From Podospora anserina (lineage: Eukaryota), in assembly GCA_017654855.1 (NCBI GenBank), contig CM030332.1, forward strand, positions 186,001-250,000: a stretch of 64,000 bases of DNA. Reading direction: 5' to 3'. The notes under the pieces were generated by a model, which was not told the DNA's origin, did no database searches, and saw only the letters and a program-made list of their open reading frames with translations. The translations under genes were made by a program, and so were the position numbers. The stretch's first letter is position 1. The number at the start of each line of letters is the position of its first letter. Positions 5,965-30,495 of this stretch are shown piece by piece.

Positions 5965-7460
5965 AGACAGGGATGGCAAGATATGAGTGATGATGATATA
6001 CTTGGCAATGAGCAAAGAAATGGGCATATGACCTTGGCGAAACAAGAAAACAGTATACGCATGAGTCTGCAATACTGTTTTAACTCGTTTAGTTTTCAGC
6101 GGTTTCGGCGTTTGGTACCTCGGTATGGGTTGGCTTGTGTAGTTTTGTGGTTATATATAGAATCTTGGCACAATCAAAGCTATCTGTTGTCTGATGTGGC
6201 TGGAGGTAATACGGCCATCTCATGGTTATAATGTGCATAGTTACTGAGACGATATACTTCTCACGCATTATCCAGGCACGGACATGATCGGTAGGTACCC
6301 TTAAGTTAGCTCCGGAGGATGGATCGCTTTTCCTTGGTCGTTGATCTAGGTGTACCATGTTCCCTCATCGATATTTTTACTGGCCTCTCATCCAATCTCT
6401 CCTTGTTTCTGGTATTTCATTCAACCGGTGTGCCCTTGGTGGCGATGGAAAAGCTGCAGAAGTAAACATTGATTCAGGTGCTCTAGGGCTGCTCAACCAA
6501 TCCCCATTATGCCATGGGTTACCTTTCCCAAGATCTCGAGATAATGACAATTTGACATTCAAGACAGATAGTCGAAGCTTGGGGACAGATACATGTCGAC
6601 AGGCACTCCCACAACCTGAGAAACAGGGCAGATCGTTGATGAGAGGGCATGCTGCTGGCAATAGCGCGGTCGCTCCTTCCCAACGCGTCACCACAGTGCA
6701 ATGTCTCCGCGAACCTGCCGAGGTGGCCTGTGCACGCTGTGTTGACTTTCCTTCCCATAATTATGCAGTGAATAAGAGCTGGGGCTGTCACTCGATGCTC
6801 TTCCTCCTCCATGGTTCACGGATCTCGTCTTTCTTCTCTCCCGCTTCCCTTTTTTCCTCCAGCGACCTCAGTCGTCCAAGGATCCCTGACCCAGCAATCC
6901 TTCGACCGATTTTTATCTCTCACATTCTCTACCAGAAGCGATACCATCATCCCCTTCAAGTTATCCTGTCTTCATTTCCTTGGTTACCGACTGTTAGGAG
7001 TCGCATTCATCGATCGACCAGCTCTCCGAACAACCGAGACAGGTGAAGCCGGTCGCATTCAAGACCGCGTGAAGCAGCTGCCTCTTGTTGGCCAAGCCTA
7101 TCTGATTGATTCTGATTGATAGTATACTTCGACTTTCCTCGCAAAAGAGAGACAGCGAAGACTGTCGCTTGCAAGAACACGCTGGGGAGCTCGCCCTTCC
7201 GCTGACATCACCTTCTAAACATTACCTTTCTGGAGGTTTCAGCCACCAAAGAAAATTCCCTGGTTTTCTCGTCAATCTGAAGTCGCGACCTCCCATCCGC
7301 GCGTCGTCATCTTCTCGAAGTTCTCAGCTCGGTATTTACTACCATCAGTACCAGTTATCGCAAAAGTGACTATCTGTAAGTGTGTCTCAATTCATTAGCT
7401 TCACGCCTACAAACTGTAAACGTCTCTGACTAACACAGATCAGCAACAAGTCAATTCAAG

Positions 7461-10265
7461 ATGATGACCTTTTCCATGGTGGACTGCGAGCCCGCCGCCT
7501 CGTCTCTCTTCTCCTGCGCCGAGCTGTCGCGTGAGCTCGAGGGCGAGAGTGACTGGACCATCTTACTCATGCCGAAATGGGTCCGAAGCCGAGTTCGAGG
7601 AACCAGTGACAGTTTAGCCCGGCACATTCAGCACTCGGAAAACACCCGCGACCTGTCAACAGACAAAAAGCTTGAAGAAGCAGCACACCAGCTATCTTCG
7701 CCCAGATTTGATGGTGAGTACAAGCGTCAAAAGAGAGAGGCAGTTGTCAAGAAGAGAATGGCTGTCAATAACCTCTTCTCCAACACTGGACCTGTCACCA
7801 CGACTCGGACATCAAGCTTCAAAGTTGCCAATGACTCCGTTCCCACGGTAGTCGATACCACTCTGACTAGCACAATTTCGACCGCTACCGGCGAGGCCAT
7901 GGTTGACACCATGGTGCCTGGGTTCAAACAAGACAACATCACACGCCAGGTCAATGAGACCAGGTGCAAGTCACAGGTGCCCATCTCAAACCCTGGCAAC
8001 GCCTGTAATGATGTCATTCTGCCTGTGGAGACTGTTGGGCCACAGCCAATTGATGTCAAGACTCCCAGCAACACCATTGCGACCGAGGAACAGAGCGCCA
8101 TGACCCAGAGTCACTGGCAGCCCCCTTCTCAGATCAACCAAGTACGCGACAAGCTCCCGTATGATGCCCAGCTTTCCAACACCTAGGAGTTGTTGATAGG
8201 CCGGGAGGTACCCATTGAGCACATGCTTCGCAAGTTTGGCAGGGTTGTCGACGACGTCATGTACGGTATTCGCCGTAACGGAAAGGTTTTCTGGTACTAC
8301 ACGGATGAACCAGCATATGTTCCTCTCATAGTGCGGGAGTTCATTGATTTCGAAGCTGTGTACCCAGCCGAGTACTTTCCGTACCACAACGACTACTATC
8401 TGGCACAAATGTACGGCGACAACGCGTGCCTGGGCGGAGATTACCTCATGCCTCTCTTTCTGGACAATCGGGAATGGAATGCGGAAAAGAGTATGATTGT
8501 GTGGGCGGAATGGACGAGATATTTTTACGCCATGGCAACGAATGACGATATGCGCCAGCAGGCCAGGGAGCTGGCTCGTCATGAAGCCAGCATGGTTTGG
8601 GGGCCTGAATTTTTGAACTGCTCCTTCACTCCTCTGCGCTACCACGAGGGCCATGATGAGCAGACAACCTACGGTCACTCTCAAGCTGAAACCCAATACG
8701 AGAATGCCGTGGGCCTTGAAGCTGGAACTCAAGAGATGCTGGCCATTCTTCACGGGACCCCAGCGTCGTCCCCGTCGAAGCATAAGCAACAGAGGGCCAA
8801 CGCGACAACCGAGATCGCCCAAACCGAGGCGCCCCAACGTTCTCAGCAGATACTCGAGACACCTTCACCCCCCGGAAGCTGTCTCAAAAAGAGGTCCGAG
8901 AGTGACTCTTCTGGCACTGGGAGCGCCAAGTCGGTGCGGTTTTCGGATGAAGTCCTTCTTCTCCGCCTTGTAAACCGCGGCAATCGTGGCAGTCTCAAGG
9001 ATGAACAGGCTGAATACACCAAAGAGAAGCTTGTAGAGAGCGAACCGGGTCGAGTTGACTGCGAAGAGTCTGTTGAAGACTCGGATCGTGTGGAGCCTCC
9101 AAGGACTGGCCTCATGTCACCCGCAGTAGTTCACCGTTCCTGCCATCAAGAAACCAAAACTCCCAGAGACAAGGCACGGAATCAGAGGTCAGTGAAGGAG
9201 CAGCGAACAGACGGCTCAGCAGCCCTCATGGGTGGCCACGAAGTTGCCCAGAGATTCGGTGGTGCCAAAGCTGTCAGAACCATAAGTCAGAAGACGAGCA
9301 AGTTTACGCTTACAAAGAGTGACCAGAGAGTCATCGACACGCCCAACGGTCGAACAGTGAGCCAAGTAACACCATTTGAGAAAGGGCCATACTCTCCAAC
9401 TAGCAGCACCGCAACTCAAAAGAGTGAGAAGGTGCCAGAGAATACAGCCACAGTGTGTGACAAGACAGAAGAGCCCCTGGCGGCCAAATCCAATGCCCCA
9501 GCAGACAGCACAAAAGGTTCTGACAAAACCAAAGCTGTGTGGTCCAAGTTGGTAGCCGCCTCTCCAGAGAGTTCACAGGCTAGTTCACGCAGCTCCGACA
9601 CATCTCCAAGAGGGTGGCGGACATTCCGCAAGCCGCCCACATCCCCCGGCTTTCCAACCAGAAGCCGGACCGAAGAGATGAGCAGTCCCGTCCCAGCACC
9701 AAAGAAGCAGAGTGTAGACTTGGCTGAGAAGATTGAAGAATCCCCACCCAGCCCAGTCCCAGCAGCCAAAACCCCAACTGTGGTCTGGGTTGAAGAGGTC
9801 CAAGAACCGGCGGCCAGTCCCGTCCAAGCAACCCTGGGTCCGGTGCGCCCTCACGCGCGCCAATCTCCCTTGCCACCGCCGCCGAGGGGACAGGGTGGAC
9901 GTACCCTCATCGAAACTCTCAACACCGACATGAGCTGGACGCAGCTACAGCCAAACCCGGTCCCGCGCGCGCCTGTCAACCCCCGGGCTCCGGCTCCAAG
10001 CCCAGCCACGGCGTGCGCGGGCCAACGACAAGAGAACCCGGGCGCTGGCAGGTGCGGAGGACAGGGCGGACAAGCCAGGAGAGGGGGCGGGAAGGCGGGA
10101 GATGTCCGGGGTGGCAGCAGTGAGGGCAGGCGCAGGGCCGACGGGCGGAGGGACTCGCGCGGGGGCGGTGAGACAGCCGCGGGAAGGAGTAGAGGAGACG
10201 GTCCTGGGGCGAAGAGAGAGATGTCGCGATGGAGGAAATTGAGGAATGAGAGCAGTTGGCGTTGA
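7461..10265 (+). CDS. Large orphan protein (~934 codons) interrupted by one in-frame TAG at 8184-8186; 5'-UTR intron 7376-7438
   Basis: ORFs 7461-8186 and 8190-10265 are in the same frame. A canonical GTAAGT...CTAAC.CAG intron lies just upstream of the ATG. An aromatic-rich globular segment follows the stop, then a low-complexity S/P/G/R tail. Confidence 0.7.
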
Positions 10266-12479
10266 GAGGGTGGGTTCATGGTGCAATGTATATTGTTGGG
10301 AGGCTATGGGTGCTTGGGAGTTTGGGGAGCAGATTGTGGTTTTGCATCTTTTTGTTGTTGGCTGGATCAGGAGCGTTGGTGGAGCAGAGCGGGTAGACAT
10401 GAATGGATTGTTGTATACATCATTTGTGTATTGTCTGTGTTGATACCGAGTCCTATTTCTACGTACATTACTTGTAGACCAGCATTTCTTCCAGCGCGTC
10501 CCGTGCTATAAACCTTCTCCTCTGCTAAGCCCCCCTATCATCCACGTCAGAGCCAAAGACACCTCTCGGCATTACCAAGTTTGATGTATGCTCGCCTTGC
10601 GGCATGTACAACCTCATACCTGTGGGGTAGATCTCCATGATTAGCCATATGCCGTTGCCACGTGTACGCAATGGTCACAGCAGTGTCTCACTTTCTCAGC
10701 GCAAGATGCAATCTGATCAGTAACCACCAATTTTGGTTCTACTAATCCAGGCGCACGGCGGGAAAATGATTCGGATGTCGTCGGAAAGAGTGGGTCGCCA
10801 CTTGCCTGATCTGGAAAGTTTGTCGGAGTTGGTGGAGTAGACACCGGGACCGGCTCCGAAGTGGACGGCGAAATGCCGGGCCTGAACCCACTCACCTGGA
10901 ATATCAATAGAGAGTTTGAAAGAATGTGAGCTAAAGGGGACCGTATGCCTGTAACTCATCGTGAAGCCTTTGATCTTGTCACATCTCCCCCAGCTGTCGC
11001 CGCCACATCCATCCTCGGGGTGCGGCGGCAGAGATCCAATGGGGAAAGCATAGATACTCGACCGAGTTGATGGTACCCTGAAAGGTCCGAACTGTTGGAG
11101 GTGTGCGATGGCAGGCTGTTTATCCGACGCATGACAGGATTCGCACTGCATTATGCGTTAAACGCGCGCGCTCATCGAAACGAGCTCGTGTCCTGTGGAT
11201 GGATTCTCCAGGTCCCCAGAATTGGCCTCAGCAAGTCCTGTGTAACGGCCGCGGGTGGTTTCCGTTGCGGCCCAGCAGCAGGATGGGTCGCGTCGGTCTC
11301 AGGGACGGGACGGTCTGAGTCCTGGCATCGGATGAGCTTTGGGATACTGACGACGACGGTTATCTGCAAAGGAAAAGAGCCGCCATGCTGGTGTGTTGGC
11401 CCGGTAAGGTATTGATGCTGAAAATGAAAGTTCCTTCAAGGAGGAATCGAAATGCCCCTCCCCCCACCTGCCAAACATGCCAAGAGGTTGTGTTGCGCGC
11501 CGTTGGAAGGCTCCACTGATCGGCCGACCCCAGAGAAACAGGGGTCTTGTGGCTTGCTCAAGCTTTGCTTCCAGGGGTTTGAGTTTCATCAATCACATTG
11601 TAGCTGACAACAACCCTCAGCTCTGCGACCACAGTTGACCACAAAAAGAAAGGCTACCTCCTGGCGATGCATACTCCGTCGGCTCTGGGCCGTGTCAAAG
11701 GCCGCCTACCGTAATTTATCTCCTCTCGGTCGGCAGCCGAGAGCCCCACCGCTGAGCCGAGACCTACAATCCCCTGTCGGAGTCCAGAACGCCGTCGCCT
11801 CTTTGGACGATCAACTTGGTGCGGCCAGCAGTGAGACGACAACCCAGAGACTTCAACCGAAGTGCCCGACCAGAATCAGACGAGAATCCACTCACTAACT
11901 CCGCTCCCGGTTTGGTCGTTGGTTTTACACGCGCGCCTGTCTTGTCAGACAGTTTCCATTTGGAGCATCCAAAGAACAATGTTCCACATTCCAAACCTCT
12001 GCCGACAGGGGTTTTGTGCCACCTTCTAGACCCCTGTCTGCACCCCGCGTTAGTGATCCTGGCACATCACCACCACAACCACTAACACCCGAGGGCCTGA
12101 GACGACAACTGCATCGGGTTGGAAGGACTTTCTGATCGCCTGGCTCGACCTGTCACGACTCAGAACGCCACCGACAGGAGAGTGAACTTTGGACACCCCT
12201 GAGTTCAGCCTTATTCCAAAGCCCATCACCTCATGAGCAACCTGTATAAAGACGAGTCGTTCCCTCCGGTTCAGATGGACCATTCAACTCATCTCGCCAT
12301 CCCTCGACCGCAGTCAATCCTTTTACATCTTTTTTCTTCAAGAACAGGACCCGGTGTCCCTTTGCATTCCTTTCTCTACAGCAGTCGCCAGTCGACTCTT
12401 TAATACCACTCGTCTTTCCTTGGCACCCAACTCTTGACACCGTTTTAGTCTCTTTCGCTTCAATTCATCACTCGCCACC

Positions 12480-25891: not shown

Positions 25892-28800
25892 CTACCAGTG
25901 AGAAGCTTGACGATGCATACTTCCACTAGTGACGGTCCATTTATCCTGGCCTGCGATTTTCACGGTCGTCGATGTCGTCACTGCAACACCCTCAGAGAAT
26001 CCCAATCCACCGTTCATAACAACTACCCGATGCCCATTCACAAACGCTATCCCAACTTCCCGACTGCCAGTTGAACTCCCATTTGCCATTCGCCCCCAGG
26101 CCTGTGTATGCCCCAGCACGATTGTTGTGGCACGAACTTCCCCAGCTGCGGTCCTCCACTCACTCAGAACAAAGCAATGCCTTCGTGCATGAGTCATGGG
26201 TGTGCTTGCATGAATTGTTGATGACGAGGGCGATGCACTCGCTGTGCCAGAGCCGAGAGCCTGAGTTCTGGACGTGCCTTGGTAGTTTCTATTGGCAAAG
26301 CCCCTGGCTTGTGATCCACGACCGGTCGACAAGTGCGTGTTTATCATCATTGATTGCAGGCTGACACTGCAAACCCACAGGTTGGTGTCCAGAAACAGCA
26401 AAGTCGACGCACCAACAAGACCCAGAACTGAGTGGACATTGTGTCTGACCGTGTACAAATTCGTTTCGTCTGCTGGTCTGATAGTATCCTCGGTGGAAAA
26501 TGGGTCGAGCGTGGAGGCGGACCACAAGTGAAGCTGCGGCCGGGTGGTCGAATAGGGCTCAATAAATTCCACAACACAGTCTTTTGCCACGTGGTAAGAT
26601 GCCTTGATTCTGACATGGCGACTCTGCAAGGGAGCATCCACTCCGGTTTTGGGTGCGGGGGCTTCGTATGGTCTCTCAATTCTTTTAACATGAACAGGCG
26701 TGAGTTCTGAAAAGTTTGACCAGGAGTAAATACGAACAACGTCGCCATATAGGAGCACGAACCAGGCAGTATTCGGGTGTGGGAAGACGGCGCGGTGTGT
26801 TAAATCTTGTGCATCAGACACTTTCCCGCTCAGCCCAGGAGAGATTGGGCCGTCAGTGGCGGCGATGTCACCAACTGCAAGTCCCACAGTGGCCTCGACA
26901 GTTTGACGACCAGGAAAATAGACCAACCCAGTCGTTAACTCCGCAGTTGAGCAGAAGTACGACCGGCAACTAGTAACGTATCGGCGGCGGAGCTGAAAAA
27001 CATTTGCGTAACAGCTTCTTGATAGCGTCGGTCTAGAAGAATATTGCCCTGCTGAAGCTGTGTGTGAGCCGAAGACAGAGTCAGTGGCGCTTCAAACCTG
27101 ACAACTAGAATACGCGCCGAATCGTCGACAGACGCAATCATCTGTTGGGATGCGCTCAGTACAATTTCGCCAATCGCTGACCCAATTCCATGTCTGTAGA
27201 GGACACCGATTTCTCTCGCCCCTGCTGTTGATAATGCCACTACACTCCCATCTCTTTTGACAACAATGATGAGGCTCCCGTCAGAGGATGCCACGATTGA
27301 ACTCGTTATTTCTGGATGGTCAGGAGGGTGAAGCAACATCGTCCTGGATGCTTGTGAGCCAAACGTTTGGGCAGCCTCTGCGTCCAAGCTCCCAGTCGAG
27401 CTCATCAAGTCATTCATACTCTTTCTGACCAAAGAAGCCGGAGCCCACACGCGGCCTTTCTTGCCACGAATGTCAACAAAGCGTACCCCATCTGAACTGA
27501 AGCAGAGACCACGGACAGCCTGGTCTAATGGGTGATTTGTGCGGTAGATGGGTACTAGAGTTGTGATAGCGCCATGGTGATCACGCTCGAATTCGAAAAT
27601 TTCGACAGCACCCTGATTGGTCCCCGCCCCGAGGCTTCTTCCATCTGGAGAGCAGGCGAGACTTTGGGCATGGACCTGAGGCCGGCGGAGATGCAGTTCT
27701 TGCGTTAGGTAGTCAAAGACACAGAGACTACCGCCCTCAAAGGCTGCCACTAGGGTACGAAATTCCGGGTCAGGGTTGAAGATGAGGTCATTGACTCCCT
27801 TGCTGTCGAATTTGGTGGCGCAAATACCAACCAGACGGAACTCGAAGATGCTTAGGATGAGAACTGGATGTGAACGATAGCCGACAGCGACAAATACCTC
27901 GTCAGGGGTAACGAGAAATGGTGCTTGAGATGGGGCTTGTGTCGGAATGATCGTGTGCGGAAAGGAGTTTGGTATGTAGTCACTACGGTTGTCCGGATGA
28001 TTCCAGCAAATCGTGTCAAACTCCTGTGTTTGTAGCTTCCTGCGATAGGGTAGGTCAGCGGTAAGCACACATTGGAGAGATAGGACGCTCGGTCACACAC
28101 CATTTTGTGAGGACACTAGATTGGTGTGCCAATACGATCTCTTCGACACCGAGAAATATCATGGCCAGCGGTGGTGACATCATCGAAATTGCATATCTCA
28201 TGGATCCCGACTTGGGATCCCAAATCACAAGCTGTTTCGCGCCGCAAGAAGCCAAAAGGGCGTCATCAAGGCTGAATGCCAATTTCCGGGCACGTTCAGG
28301 ATGGCTCAAATAGCGAAGGCAGTGAAGAGACTCCGGATCGTATAGCAATAACTGACCAGTTGCCAGACCAACGGCGAAATAACGCTCACCATGAGCCACT
28401 GTTGTCGCAGGACCACTGCGGAAGTCTATTTGAGTAAGACAATCGTCCCATGTCCCAGGTAGTACTCCTTGTACGGTAAGTCCTCTAGGAGCTCGCTGGT
28501 GGCCTGATTTTTTGGAGATCAATGAATGAGCCAAAGGGGCACATAGGTGGAACCAGCAAGTATATTGACGAGGGACATGTCAATAGCTGAGGGCGAAACT
28601 TGGCGGCCACACGGATGAGGTCAATCACCCAACATCCACAAGTTGAATAGTAGGGTTGGCAGACAGTCCGTCTCTCGTTCTTCTACCAATATATTCCCGT
28701 AAATTTGTGGCTGTCTGAGCGATCACGGCCAGATTTCCGGCTGCTGAGACATGTTCGATCCATTCTAGGACAGTGTTGCTCCGTAGAAACTCGCAGAGAG

Positions 28801-30495
28801 CGTCCGTGAGGTAGTCGTCAGATGATGCGAACAGGAAAACATGATTGGAGAAGAAGCGGCATGCGTAGTTAACCATAGAGGGGTCCAATGGCTGTGGTGT
28901 CGCTGCAAACTTTCCGAGTCCCACCGAACCCCCAATCGCTGACTGCTTCTCCGTAACTCTGGACTTGAGCACACTAGTGGAGATATATTCGAGAAGCAAT
29001 GTACCAAGCAGGATATGCCCTTGTTCTTTGTTGATAAGCAATTGTTCGTCGACATTTGGTGTCAGTAGGAACTCGTACGGTTTCGTATGTCATCTGCACA
29101 GTGCTATTAATGTCAATGAATACGAGCTGTGCGCAGAGATCCGGTATGGCTTTCATGCATTCTGCAGAGTTTGCCCTACATCCAGCTTGACAGCACATCG
29201 TAGCTCCTGCAAAGTGAGTGGGCGGGATGAGAGTGTAACCCAAGTCAAGATGGACTTTGCAAGGGTAGCTTTTCGTTTCTTGAAAGTAATGGATTCCGTC
29301 ATTCGACGATAGAAGGCGAACAGGTCGGCAGGTACCTCTTCCAACACAACCTCCATGGTCTCATCCCACCAGACATCCTCAAACTCTTGTACGACCAGTC
29401 GTGTCCAAAAAAAAAGAGCCCCGGGATTTGGCAAGTATCTTCTCACACATGCGCTCGCGGTCTTGGGGGTTGTCTGGCCTACCCAGCTCTTTTAGTCGCG
29501 TGTCCAGAAAAAGGTGCATGTCCTCGACAGTGTCCGTATCCGATAGCTTCTCTATTGTTGCCTTCTTCCGTCCTAGAGAGAGCAAGCCACGCTCAATGTC
29601 TTCCAAAAGTCGACTGGTAGCAAAAAGGTGAAGATCGTGGGGTATAGTGGCAAGAAACTTGTTGGAAAATAAAGAACCAAAACATGAAAATTCGTCCACA
29701 CCATCGATCACCCAAAAGTGGCTTGCCATCGACGGTATTTTGAACAGGGTAGCCGTAAAGATGCGGCGCCAAACCACAGCTTCATCGGTCTTGTCCCAAG
29801 GCATATCGTCCTGGGCGAGCTTGAGCAAAGCGTCCCGAACAAGGTTGTCCTGGAGCGCCATCTGATAGGCTAAGGATAGGAAACATTCACCCAAGGTAGA
29901 GTTGCCAGTCTTTGCGTGTCGAGAAATGAAATAACTGCAGAATGCATTGGGAGATTTGAGCTGTTCAATGATATGACAGGCAAGAATCGCCTTCCCTACG
30001 CCCGGTCTTCCCGTGAGCCAAAGAATCCCTGGGGCAGTGCGCGCCTTCCAGGCTGTGTAGGGTGCCGACTGGTGAACCATTGGCATGACCCCGGCTGCTT
30101 GAGGACCTGCAGAGTTGCCAAGTCGGTCTCGAAGGAGTCTCTAGTTCCTAGAAAAGAGCGAAGGAGTGCAGCTGCTGTGGCATCGGACAGAGATGGAGCA
30201 CTACTCAGCTGCAGGATAGGTCCAGACAGGGAGGATGGCTGCGGTGGCGGAGTCTCGGGCCGAGATGACCGTATTGCATCGACAGCTGTGAGAAGAGCAT
30301 TTCGCAGCATCTTGTATTTTGGGTCCGAGGGGCTGTCGAACTTGCAGACATGGCGGTGGTCAGCGTCCATTGCCGCAATTCTCCTCGTTGTGGAAACCAA
30401 GGGTTGCTGAGTGCCGCTCCACAACGATCTGATTCATGGCGCTCTTGACAGGAAGGGTTTCGTAAAAAGACCAAAGACGAAGATCGGGGGCAATG
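25892..30495 (-). pseudogene. Fungal NLR (NWD-like) pseudogene: truncated alpha/beta-hydrolase (SesB/PGAP1-like) N-terminus, NACHT, WD40-like repeats
   Basis: LRLWSFYET..DADHRHVCKF (end of hydrolase domain), Walker A WLTGRPGVGKA, Walker B FWVIDGVDE, GSFFWTRLV, RPLTLQEL, and WD-like LAFSLDDALLASCG and LACSPDGRSL. At least six frame breaks; the 5' part is missing beyond the AT-rich block. Confidence 0.9.

Follow-up and report, generated by a model that had tools for sequence, protein, structure and literature searches.

Adenosine-to-inosine (A-to-I) editing of mRNA is described as common to the Sordariomycetes and is said to date from a Sordariomycete ancestor (PMC10776026). Within the Sordariales it has been demonstrated in Neurospora crassa and Sordaria macrospora, and editing that restores prematurely stopped genes is established in Fusarium and Neurospora. 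In Fusarium graminearum, 69 genes besides PUK1 were reported to undergo UAG-to-UGG editing in exons that had been misannotated as introns, most of these genes being without a known domain (Liu et al. 2016, PMC4817773), and an updated list comprises 71 such premature-stop-corrected (PSC) pseudogenes (Sci Adv 2024, PMC10776026). Here we analysed a gene of Podospora anserina that may belong to the same class. It lies in a stretch of 64,000 nucleotides (NCBI GenBank assembly GCA_017654855.1, contig CM030332.1, positions 186,001 to 250,000 of the forward strand), hereafter called the window and numbered from its first letter, and it consists of a 934-codon reading frame broken by a single TAG at codon 242. 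Judging from sequence comparison, we consider it about an even bet (probability roughly 0.5) that this conserved UAG is corrected by A-to-I editing in the sexual stage.

Classification of such genes is delicate. Seven of the original 70 PSC pseudogenes were reclassified after correct annotation (PMC10776026), so the call easily goes either way, and premature TAGs are reported in the same source to derive mostly from TGG and often from other codons. In P. anserina, ADAT genes are differentially expressed during sexual development (2025 preprint). As a model for sexual development, meiotic drive and heterokaryon incompatibility, the genus is of major importance. The gene rfk-1 of the Neurospora spore killer Sk-2 reportedly has an early stop that is edited in the sexual phase, giving a longer protein. 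The likeness to the Podospora gene lies in a small, lineage-specific gene of the Sordariales with a short unedited and a long edited product; rfk-1, however, drives at meiosis and its phenotype has been demonstrated, whereas nothing links the Podospora gene to drive. A splicing counterpart is yeast AMA1 with its meiosis-specific intron (PMC10776026). There, too, an in-frame interruption limits the full-length protein to the sexual phase, which makes AMA1 a model for the rival explanation by splicing. AMA1 has canonical intron signals and yeast has no mRNA A-to-I editing, whereas the splice signals at the Podospora locus are weak.

The likeness to PUK1 and the other PSC pseudogenes extends over several features: an in-frame UAG in an intact and conserved open reading frame (ORF), a gene model that skips the stop by means of an implausible in-frame intron, the lack of a known domain, restriction to one lineage, U at position -1 and purines at +1 and +3 of the candidate adenosine, and the placing of this adenosine in a hairpin loop. 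The difference is that editing was demonstrated there, whereas the Podospora gene is a candidate.

RESULTS

A single TAG interrupts a 934-codon reading frame

The frame runs on the + strand from an ATG at 7461 (MMTF...) to a TGA at 10263-10265, and the TAG at 8184-8186 is its sole break. Translation of the whole frame revealed no other stop and no frameshift. An earlier note on this stretch had described one frame split by a single TAG with no second lesion, and this description holds, except that the downstream part opens at 8187 and not at 8190. The upstream ORF (7461-8183, + strand) comprises 241 sense codons and ends before the TAG; a conserved N-terminus (LEGESDWTI..MPKW, LSPPRF) is followed by a variable Ser/Thr-rich linker. 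The downstream ORF (8187-10265, + strand) comprises 692 codons and the TGA, is mostly disordered with an RGG-rich tail, and has a conserved C-terminus (KREM.RW.KLRNESSWR). It begins with seven codons, ELLIGRE (8187-8207, + strand), which are coding in orthologs and are omitted by the gene model of Podospora pseudoanserina. An aromatic-rich domain of no known family follows at 8208-8645 on the same strand (VPIEHMLRKFG ... IRRNGKVFWYY ... FPYHNDYYLAQMYG ... VWAEWTRY ... LWGP). On the - strand, an antisense ORF of 292 codons (7986-8864) lies opposite the TAG and the conserved domain and is probably a by-product of GC-rich codon usage.

Sequencing runs were compared with the window. X4 is a DNA run, and X1-X3 (5-8% of words) are only guessed to be RNA. 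X4, which is possibly the window's own source, was identical at the TAG and showed a single difference, T>G at 10046. The identity of X4 across the TAG makes an assembly error unlikely. The G at 10046 is also present in an X1 contig; it is a synonymous change at a third codon position (GCT to GCG, Ala) and presumably a strain polymorphism.

The gene family is restricted to the Podosporaceae

The best protein match was P. pseudoanserina QC764_100450 (P0004, 912 aa, 93% identity), which represents a 12-member cluster. From the locus-tag convention of this ortholog, the gene is probably Pa_1_450 of P. anserina. Further orthologs were found in Cercophora samala (P0005), Triangularia verruculosa (P0006) and Apiosordaria backusii (P0008). 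Common to all orthologs are the conserved N-terminus, the variable linker, the aromatic-rich domain from VPIEHMLRKFG onwards, and a long disordered tail with the C-terminal motif. In C. samala, A. backusii and T. verruculosa the two halves form one protein. An exhaustive HMMER scan with the domain against 1.84 billion representatives found 5 proteins in total, and a profile search found 4. The gene had been called an orphan, which was not borne out. The ortholog matches are limited to four Podosporaceae lineages, and the family is therefore, as far as these sequences indicate, confined to the Podosporaceae: lineage-restricted and not a strict orphan, though without a Pfam family.

A Pfam scan of both halves matched no family, and the top score of a search of the ESM Atlas (0.80) was at chance level. 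An AlphaFold2 model of residues 205-425, computed from a 6-row alignment with W at the stop, was uninformative (mean pLDDT 41); residues 1-57 of the model, which include ELLIGRE, had a pLDDT below 50. Metagenomes were scanned for ortholog DNA: with the domain alignment 177 stretches matched and 0 were confirmed, and with a degenerate pattern there were 0 matches. Two short entries, P0009 (91 aa) and P0012 (61 aa), align to 8223-8700 and are about 70-74% identical to the domain. They were considered as paralogs altered by repeat-induced point mutation (RIP) and rejected. Their differences (A>V, P>F/L, T>I/M, H>Y, R>C/W, S>F) are all C-to-T on the coding strand, a pattern that looks like assemblies of bisulfite-converted reads. 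Because of this fit, both entries were dropped as apparent artefacts.

The stop is conserved between intact reading frames

Two other genomes of the species complex contain 239-aa ORFs (P0010 and P0011), on contigs of 18 kb and 15 kb, respectively. Both are collinear with the N-terminal ORF of the window, from which they differ at 15/239 and 23/239 residues, and both terminate at an identical ...QVRDKLPYDAQLSNT (...LSNT), the same residue at which the window ORF ends. The P. pseudoanserina model P0004 likewise skips the stop position. At codon 242 the comparison within the species complex covers proteins or ORF ends, and on these data at least three of its lineages share the stop.

The reading frames on both sides of the stop are intact. 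The N-terminal ORF is open in four lineages, and the 692 downstream codons align with P0004 free of gaps apart from 22 skipped codons, despite a residue divergence of about 7%. Untranslated DNA at such divergence would be expected to gain stops and frame-breaking indels. Since both flanking ORFs have been kept intact, some bypass of the stop must exist. The conserved stop together with the intact downstream ORF also speaks against an assembly error, and against a fresh lesion in a gene already dead.

The 45 nucleotides before the stop resemble coding sequence

The TAG is also the end of a 45-nt in-frame segment (8142-8186, + strand, GTACGC..TAG), which can be read either as 14 sense codons (VRDKLPYDAQLSNT) followed by the stop or as a minimal intron. 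The segment begins at 8142 and is without CTRAC, as had been stated; a very short intron at this place had been named as the alternative to editing. The reference for codon usage consisted of 10 Pfam-confirmed ORFs (3,947 codons). Of 30 ORFs with 250 or more codons, 25 were scanned; the two that belong to the gene itself and three antisense ones were left out. Matches to the pattern GTRNGY...CTRAY...YAG served as intron proxies (104 in the window, 32 of them 46-75 nt long). A stricter set consisted of matches joining two open frames of at least 40 codons (n = 25), of which 22 block read-through. A position weight matrix (PWM) of the splice sites was scored on 31 proxies, which are its own training set.

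In frame, the codons at 8142-8183 gave a log-likelihood ratio (LLR) for coding of +4.36 bits, while the other two frames gave -0.87 and -10.3. The in-frame value corresponds to the 73rd and 91st percentile of the 14-codon windows in the N-terminal and C-terminal parts of the gene, respectively, and it was attained by 2% of off-frame windows and 1/32 intron proxies. The GC content of the segment is 0.556, compared with 0.567 for the coding sequence of the gene and a proxy mean of 0.49 (5/32 proxies reach 0.556). The donor CAA/GTACGC scored 2.67 bits, under all 31 proxies (minimum 4.5), and was equalled or beaten by 13/107 GTs inside the C-terminal ORF; a C at donor position +6 occurs in 3/31 proxies. 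The acceptor at 8186 scored 3.36 against a proxy minimum of 4.1. No CTRAY branch site is present in 8142-8186, and more than 90% of Fusarium branch sites are reported to be CTRAY. With 45 nt, the segment is shorter than all 22 ORF-joining canonical matches in the window (53-114 nt). The putative intron is atypical on all the measures applied (length, donor, branch site, GC content and codon usage), and the 45 nt look like coding sequence and not like an intron. Two further in-frame candidates, 8110-8199 (donor GTCACT) and one with donor GTATGA at 8159, were rejected by eye for poor donors or frame.

A useful reference is the probable intron in the 5'-untranslated region (UTR) of the same gene. 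The earlier note had mentioned such an intron, and a 63-nt canonical intron-like element was found at 7376-7438 on the + strand (GTAAGT..CTGACTAAC..CAG), with canonical donor, branch and acceptor, a GC content of about 0.40-0.41, and branch motifs 5-9 nt from its own acceptor. An X3 contig spans 7164-7324, upstream of this intron, without an RNA junction. The 45-nt segment shares with this element and with short introns of the Sordariales the GT..AG ends and the short length. Ordinary introns differ from it in being at least 53 nt long, in a mean GC content of 0.49 versus 0.556, and in having CTRAY where the segment has none.

The published gene model skips 22 codons

The earlier note had considered a single intron alternative, the 45-nt form. 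This form exists, but a second in-frame GT-AG candidate of 66 nt is also present at 8142-8207 (+ strand, GTACGC ... TTGAT ... GGGAG). It is implied by P0004, the sole annotated ortholog model, which lacks exactly the 22 codons of 8142-8207. The length of the 66-nt form is typical and TTGAT, 11 nt before the GAG, is a plausible branch, yet it holds a conserved coding peptide. Its GAG acceptor scored -4.03 bits, while every one of the 31 proxies has CAG or TAG at its end and a score of 4.1 or more. At the position of ELLIGRE, C. samala has EVLVLRE and A. backusii EAFLKYE, directly before the conserved VP(I/T)(E/R)H. The BLOSUM62 score of ELLIGRE against EVLVLRE is 19, which was matched by 9/102,109 stop-free heptapeptides from six frames of the whole window. 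The 66-nt intron is therefore, on these sequence comparisons, unlikely as the main form.

According to its description, the P. pseudoanserina annotation was made by MAKER with proteins of P. anserina and Podospora comata and with RNA-seq transcript models as evidence. In the supplementary transcript and splicing tables of Lelandais 2022, Pa_1_450 had 0 occurrences and its neighbours 1 and 2. Because of this missing entry, the P0004 model is probably based on prediction alone. By analogy with F. graminearum, the 66-nt intron of the model would be an annotation device that steps over the stop.

A8185 lies in a favourable context and a predicted hairpin loop

The candidate A-to-I site is A8185, the A of the TAG codon, whose trinucleotide context is ACC-TAG-GAG. 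Published accounts of fungal editing give U at -1 and A or G at +1 and +3 as the preferred context and UUAGG and UUAAG as the best pentamers; they further report hairpin loops and stabler hairpins at highly edited sites. The context of A8185 is C-U-A-G-G-A, with C and not U at -2. The U at -1, G at +1 and A at +3 that had been pointed out are present, and +2 is also G, so the sequence preference is seen at -1, +1 and +3. The claim of an editable context needs trimming, however: U at -1 and G at +1 are uninformative, because they are automatic for any TAG, whereas G at +2, A at +3 and the hairpin are informative.

A local hairpin is predicted at 8177-8195 (+ strand), with a stem CAACA/UGUUG of 5 Watson-Crick base pairs and a 9-nt loop, CCUAGGAGU. 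A8185 is loop position 4 or, counting a C.U closing pair, position 3 of the 7-nt loop CUAGGAG. We note that a 7-nt loop with UA at positions 2-3 may be likened to an anticodon loop. In a fold with 30 nt on either side, A8185 was in the hairpin loop with a probability of being unpaired of 0.999. Such a hairpin was present at 52/4422 UA sites and at 14/988 UAG sites (1.4%) in the window. In the modelled fold, A8185 thus sits in a hairpin loop, as reported for edited sites, and we regard this as weak evidence.

Expression data

Contigs of X1-X3 cover 7164-7324, 7571-7742, 8414-8711, 9789-10391 and an end piece; the coverage is fragmentary and of low depth. After 8598, an X3 contig (depth 2.4) carries an extra G that is absent from X4; within a run of Gs, this probably stems from an error of sequencing or assembly. 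In the mycelial microarray of Bidard 2011, Pa_1_450 had an A value of about 5 and no differential expression by mating type. Pa_1_450 was absent from the part of the Grognet 2019 supplements that was searched, large tables possibly lying outside that part. A full-text search for Pa_1_450 returned only unrelated subjects, mostly Pseudomonas PA1450.

Weighing of the explanations

Several observations weigh against correction of the stop by editing. The stops of P0010 and P0011 are known from proteins alone, so that TAG is not distinguishable from another stop codon. No ortholog has TGG at codon 242, the other genera having a shorter linker with no aligned residue; because of this, a restorative origin from an ancestral W is not demonstrable here. 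That three lineages agree in all 14 residues before the stop carries no significance: the invariant run at the stop spans 22 columns, and another of 26 occurs elsewhere in the same alignment. The hairpin criterion was chosen after the site had been viewed, 25/55 UA sites in the gene fall in hairpin loops of the minimum free energy (MFE) fold, and a 101-nt fold with a z of -0.82 is not unusually stable. The intron proxies were picked by the very signals that were tested and include chance matches, one of them inside this gene's ORF. This selection, and the scoring of the PWM on the sequences that trained it, make the likelihood contrasts rough. The contigs of X1-X3 leave 8142-8207 uncovered, and neither A>G nor splicing was observed there. 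A literature search on A-to-I editing in Podospora found no catalogue of sites, and a 2024 review omits the genus. Further points of this kind concern the possible splice signals and are given with that explanation.

Among the alternatives, the best surviving one, which we consider possible but doubtful, places the stop inside a short in-frame spliceosomal intron, with 8142 as its first base and its end at 8186, at 8207 or, by alternative 3' splice sites, at both. It could be an old minimal intron or a recent intronization after a nonsense mutation, possibly stage-specific. The segment begins with GT, ends with AG and restores the frame, its donor lies at a codon boundary, and the TAG itself supplies the acceptor. 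GTACGC fits GTRNGY, and 3 pattern matches of at most 120 nt in the window share this hexamer. CCAAC, one mismatch from CTAAC, stands 7 nt before the TAG. TTGAT, which stands 11 nt before the GAG ending at 8207, matches a branch variant (TTRAY) known from Fusarium. From the GT..AG ends, the CCAAC and the short spacing between branch and acceptor in the gene's own 5'-UTR intron, it follows that a minimal 45-nt intron is physically possible. In C. samala, ...NIAHQ runs straight into EVLVLRE, which is the junction expected for an acceptor at 8186, and in P. anserina more genes show alternative 3' splice sites than any other kind of splicing variation. The codon and GC tests are not counted against intronization, since a recently intronized segment still looks coding.

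The measurements set against this explanation are mostly those given above. The 45 nt fall below the 53-114 nt of the 22 ORF-joining matches and lack CTRAY, 31/31 proxies outscore the donor, 13/107 coding GTs do at least as well as it, and the LLR is reached by 1/32 proxies. The 66-nt form would use a GAG acceptor at -4.03 and would remove a peptide conserved across genera. P0004 lacks exactly 22 codons here, and its annotation is described as drawing on RNA-seq transcript models; Pa_1_450, however, has no Lelandais 2022 entry, so the model is probably without RNA support. Models that skip the stop are in any case no evidence of splicing, because a predictor always finds an AG at a TAG, as in the 69 Fusarium genes. 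The two explanations predict different proteins. If the site is edited, a tryptic peptide LPYDAQLSNTWELLIGR is predicted, whereas the 45-nt splice would give ...SQINQELLIGR and the 66-nt splice ...SQINQVPIEHMLR.

That the TAG is a true terminator appears improbable, and less probable than splicing. It could reflect gene fission into a 241-aa protein and a C-terminal protein starting from an ATG at 8223, a young unitary pseudogene that has not decayed, or low-level translational readthrough of the UAG. Several lineages have the stop fixed, and there is an ATG 12 codons further on (IEHM). The gene evolves fast (7% protein divergence from P. pseudoanserina), which could mean relaxed constraint, the mycelial array signal appears very low, and the cover in the runs guessed to be RNA is fragmentary and of low depth. 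However, the halves are united as one protein in C. samala, A. backusii and T. verruculosa, and the 692-codon ORF is free of stops, frameshifts and gaps against P0004 despite about 7% divergence. Moreover, ELLIGREVPIEH, which lies between the stop and the ATG at 8223, is still orthologous coding sequence. The ATG at 8223 has the context CAC-ATG-C and thus lacks the preferred A at -3, which counts against fission. To our knowledge, UAG-G is not among the leaky contexts, which counts against readthrough.

Least likely, to judge from the sequence, is an ordinary long-standing intron, since every measurable feature of the segment is atypical of one.

The contest that remains is between A-to-I correction and weak or cryptic in-frame splicing. 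Editing is plausible and somewhat favoured by the sequence: it is a known mechanism in this fungal class, the context is right, the gene is of the right kind and the annotation artefact is a documented one. In a bolder variant, editing would occur alongside weak alternative splicing (45 or 66 nt), and three isoforms would result.

Neighbouring genes in the window

Beyond the gene studied here, the window contains several recognizable loci. An NLR-like gene lies on the - strand at 26938-30140, where adjacent ORFs have an NPHP3_N/NACHT match (29382-30140, E 5e-29) and weak WD40 matches at 26938-28092 that are below the Pfam gathering cut-offs; in Podospora, non-self recognition commonly involves genes of this kind. 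At 37489-57806, on both strands, the gene content is typical of a secondary-metabolite cluster. It comprises an NmrA-like gene, a Zn2Cys6 factor, a methyltransferase, a zinc alcohol dehydrogenase and a cytochrome P450 (E 6e-71), as well as a second Zn2Cys6/C2H2 factor and a TRI-like acyltransferase N-domain. On the - strand at 23147-24412, an ORF has a GRDP-like (glycine-rich domain-containing protein-like) Pfam match (E 3e-17).

DISCUSSION

We propose that the locus is one Podosporaceae-specific gene of about 934 codons with a conserved premature UAG at codon 242, in which the 45 nt before the stop would be ordinary coding sequence. In vegetative cells, translation would halt after 241 residues, and the mRNA may be poorly expressed or unstable. 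In developing perithecia, a machinery of the ADAT type (Tad2/Tad3) with stage-specific cofactors would deaminate A8185 in its hairpin loop. The UAG would then be read as UGG (Trp), giving a full-length protein (...LSNTWELLIGREVPIEH...) that includes the conserved aromatic-rich domain. That editing occurs, that it is limited to one stage and that the short product has a role are all inferences. The interpretation offered in the earlier note was of this kind; the conserved stop, the intact ORFs, the non-intron-like 45 nt and the favourable context speak for it, whereas the word orphan was an overstatement.

On the same roughly even odds, and as far as our searches show, the gene would be the first in Podospora to be identified as premature-stop-corrected, with an aromatic-rich domain that is made only when A8185 is edited in perithecia. 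In that proposal, the UAG would have been kept since before the divergence of the species complex and would act as a developmental on-switch and not as a lesion. Should splicing prove right instead, we would have here a degenerate intron of unusually small size, which matters mainly to gene prediction. If editing takes place, the published model would be wrong, since it omits 22 codons, 7 of them conserved, and Podospora annotations would probably conceal more such genes behind short, weak, in-frame 'introns'. The gene would then offer a young, lineage-specific case in which an adaptive switch could be tested against tolerated damage.

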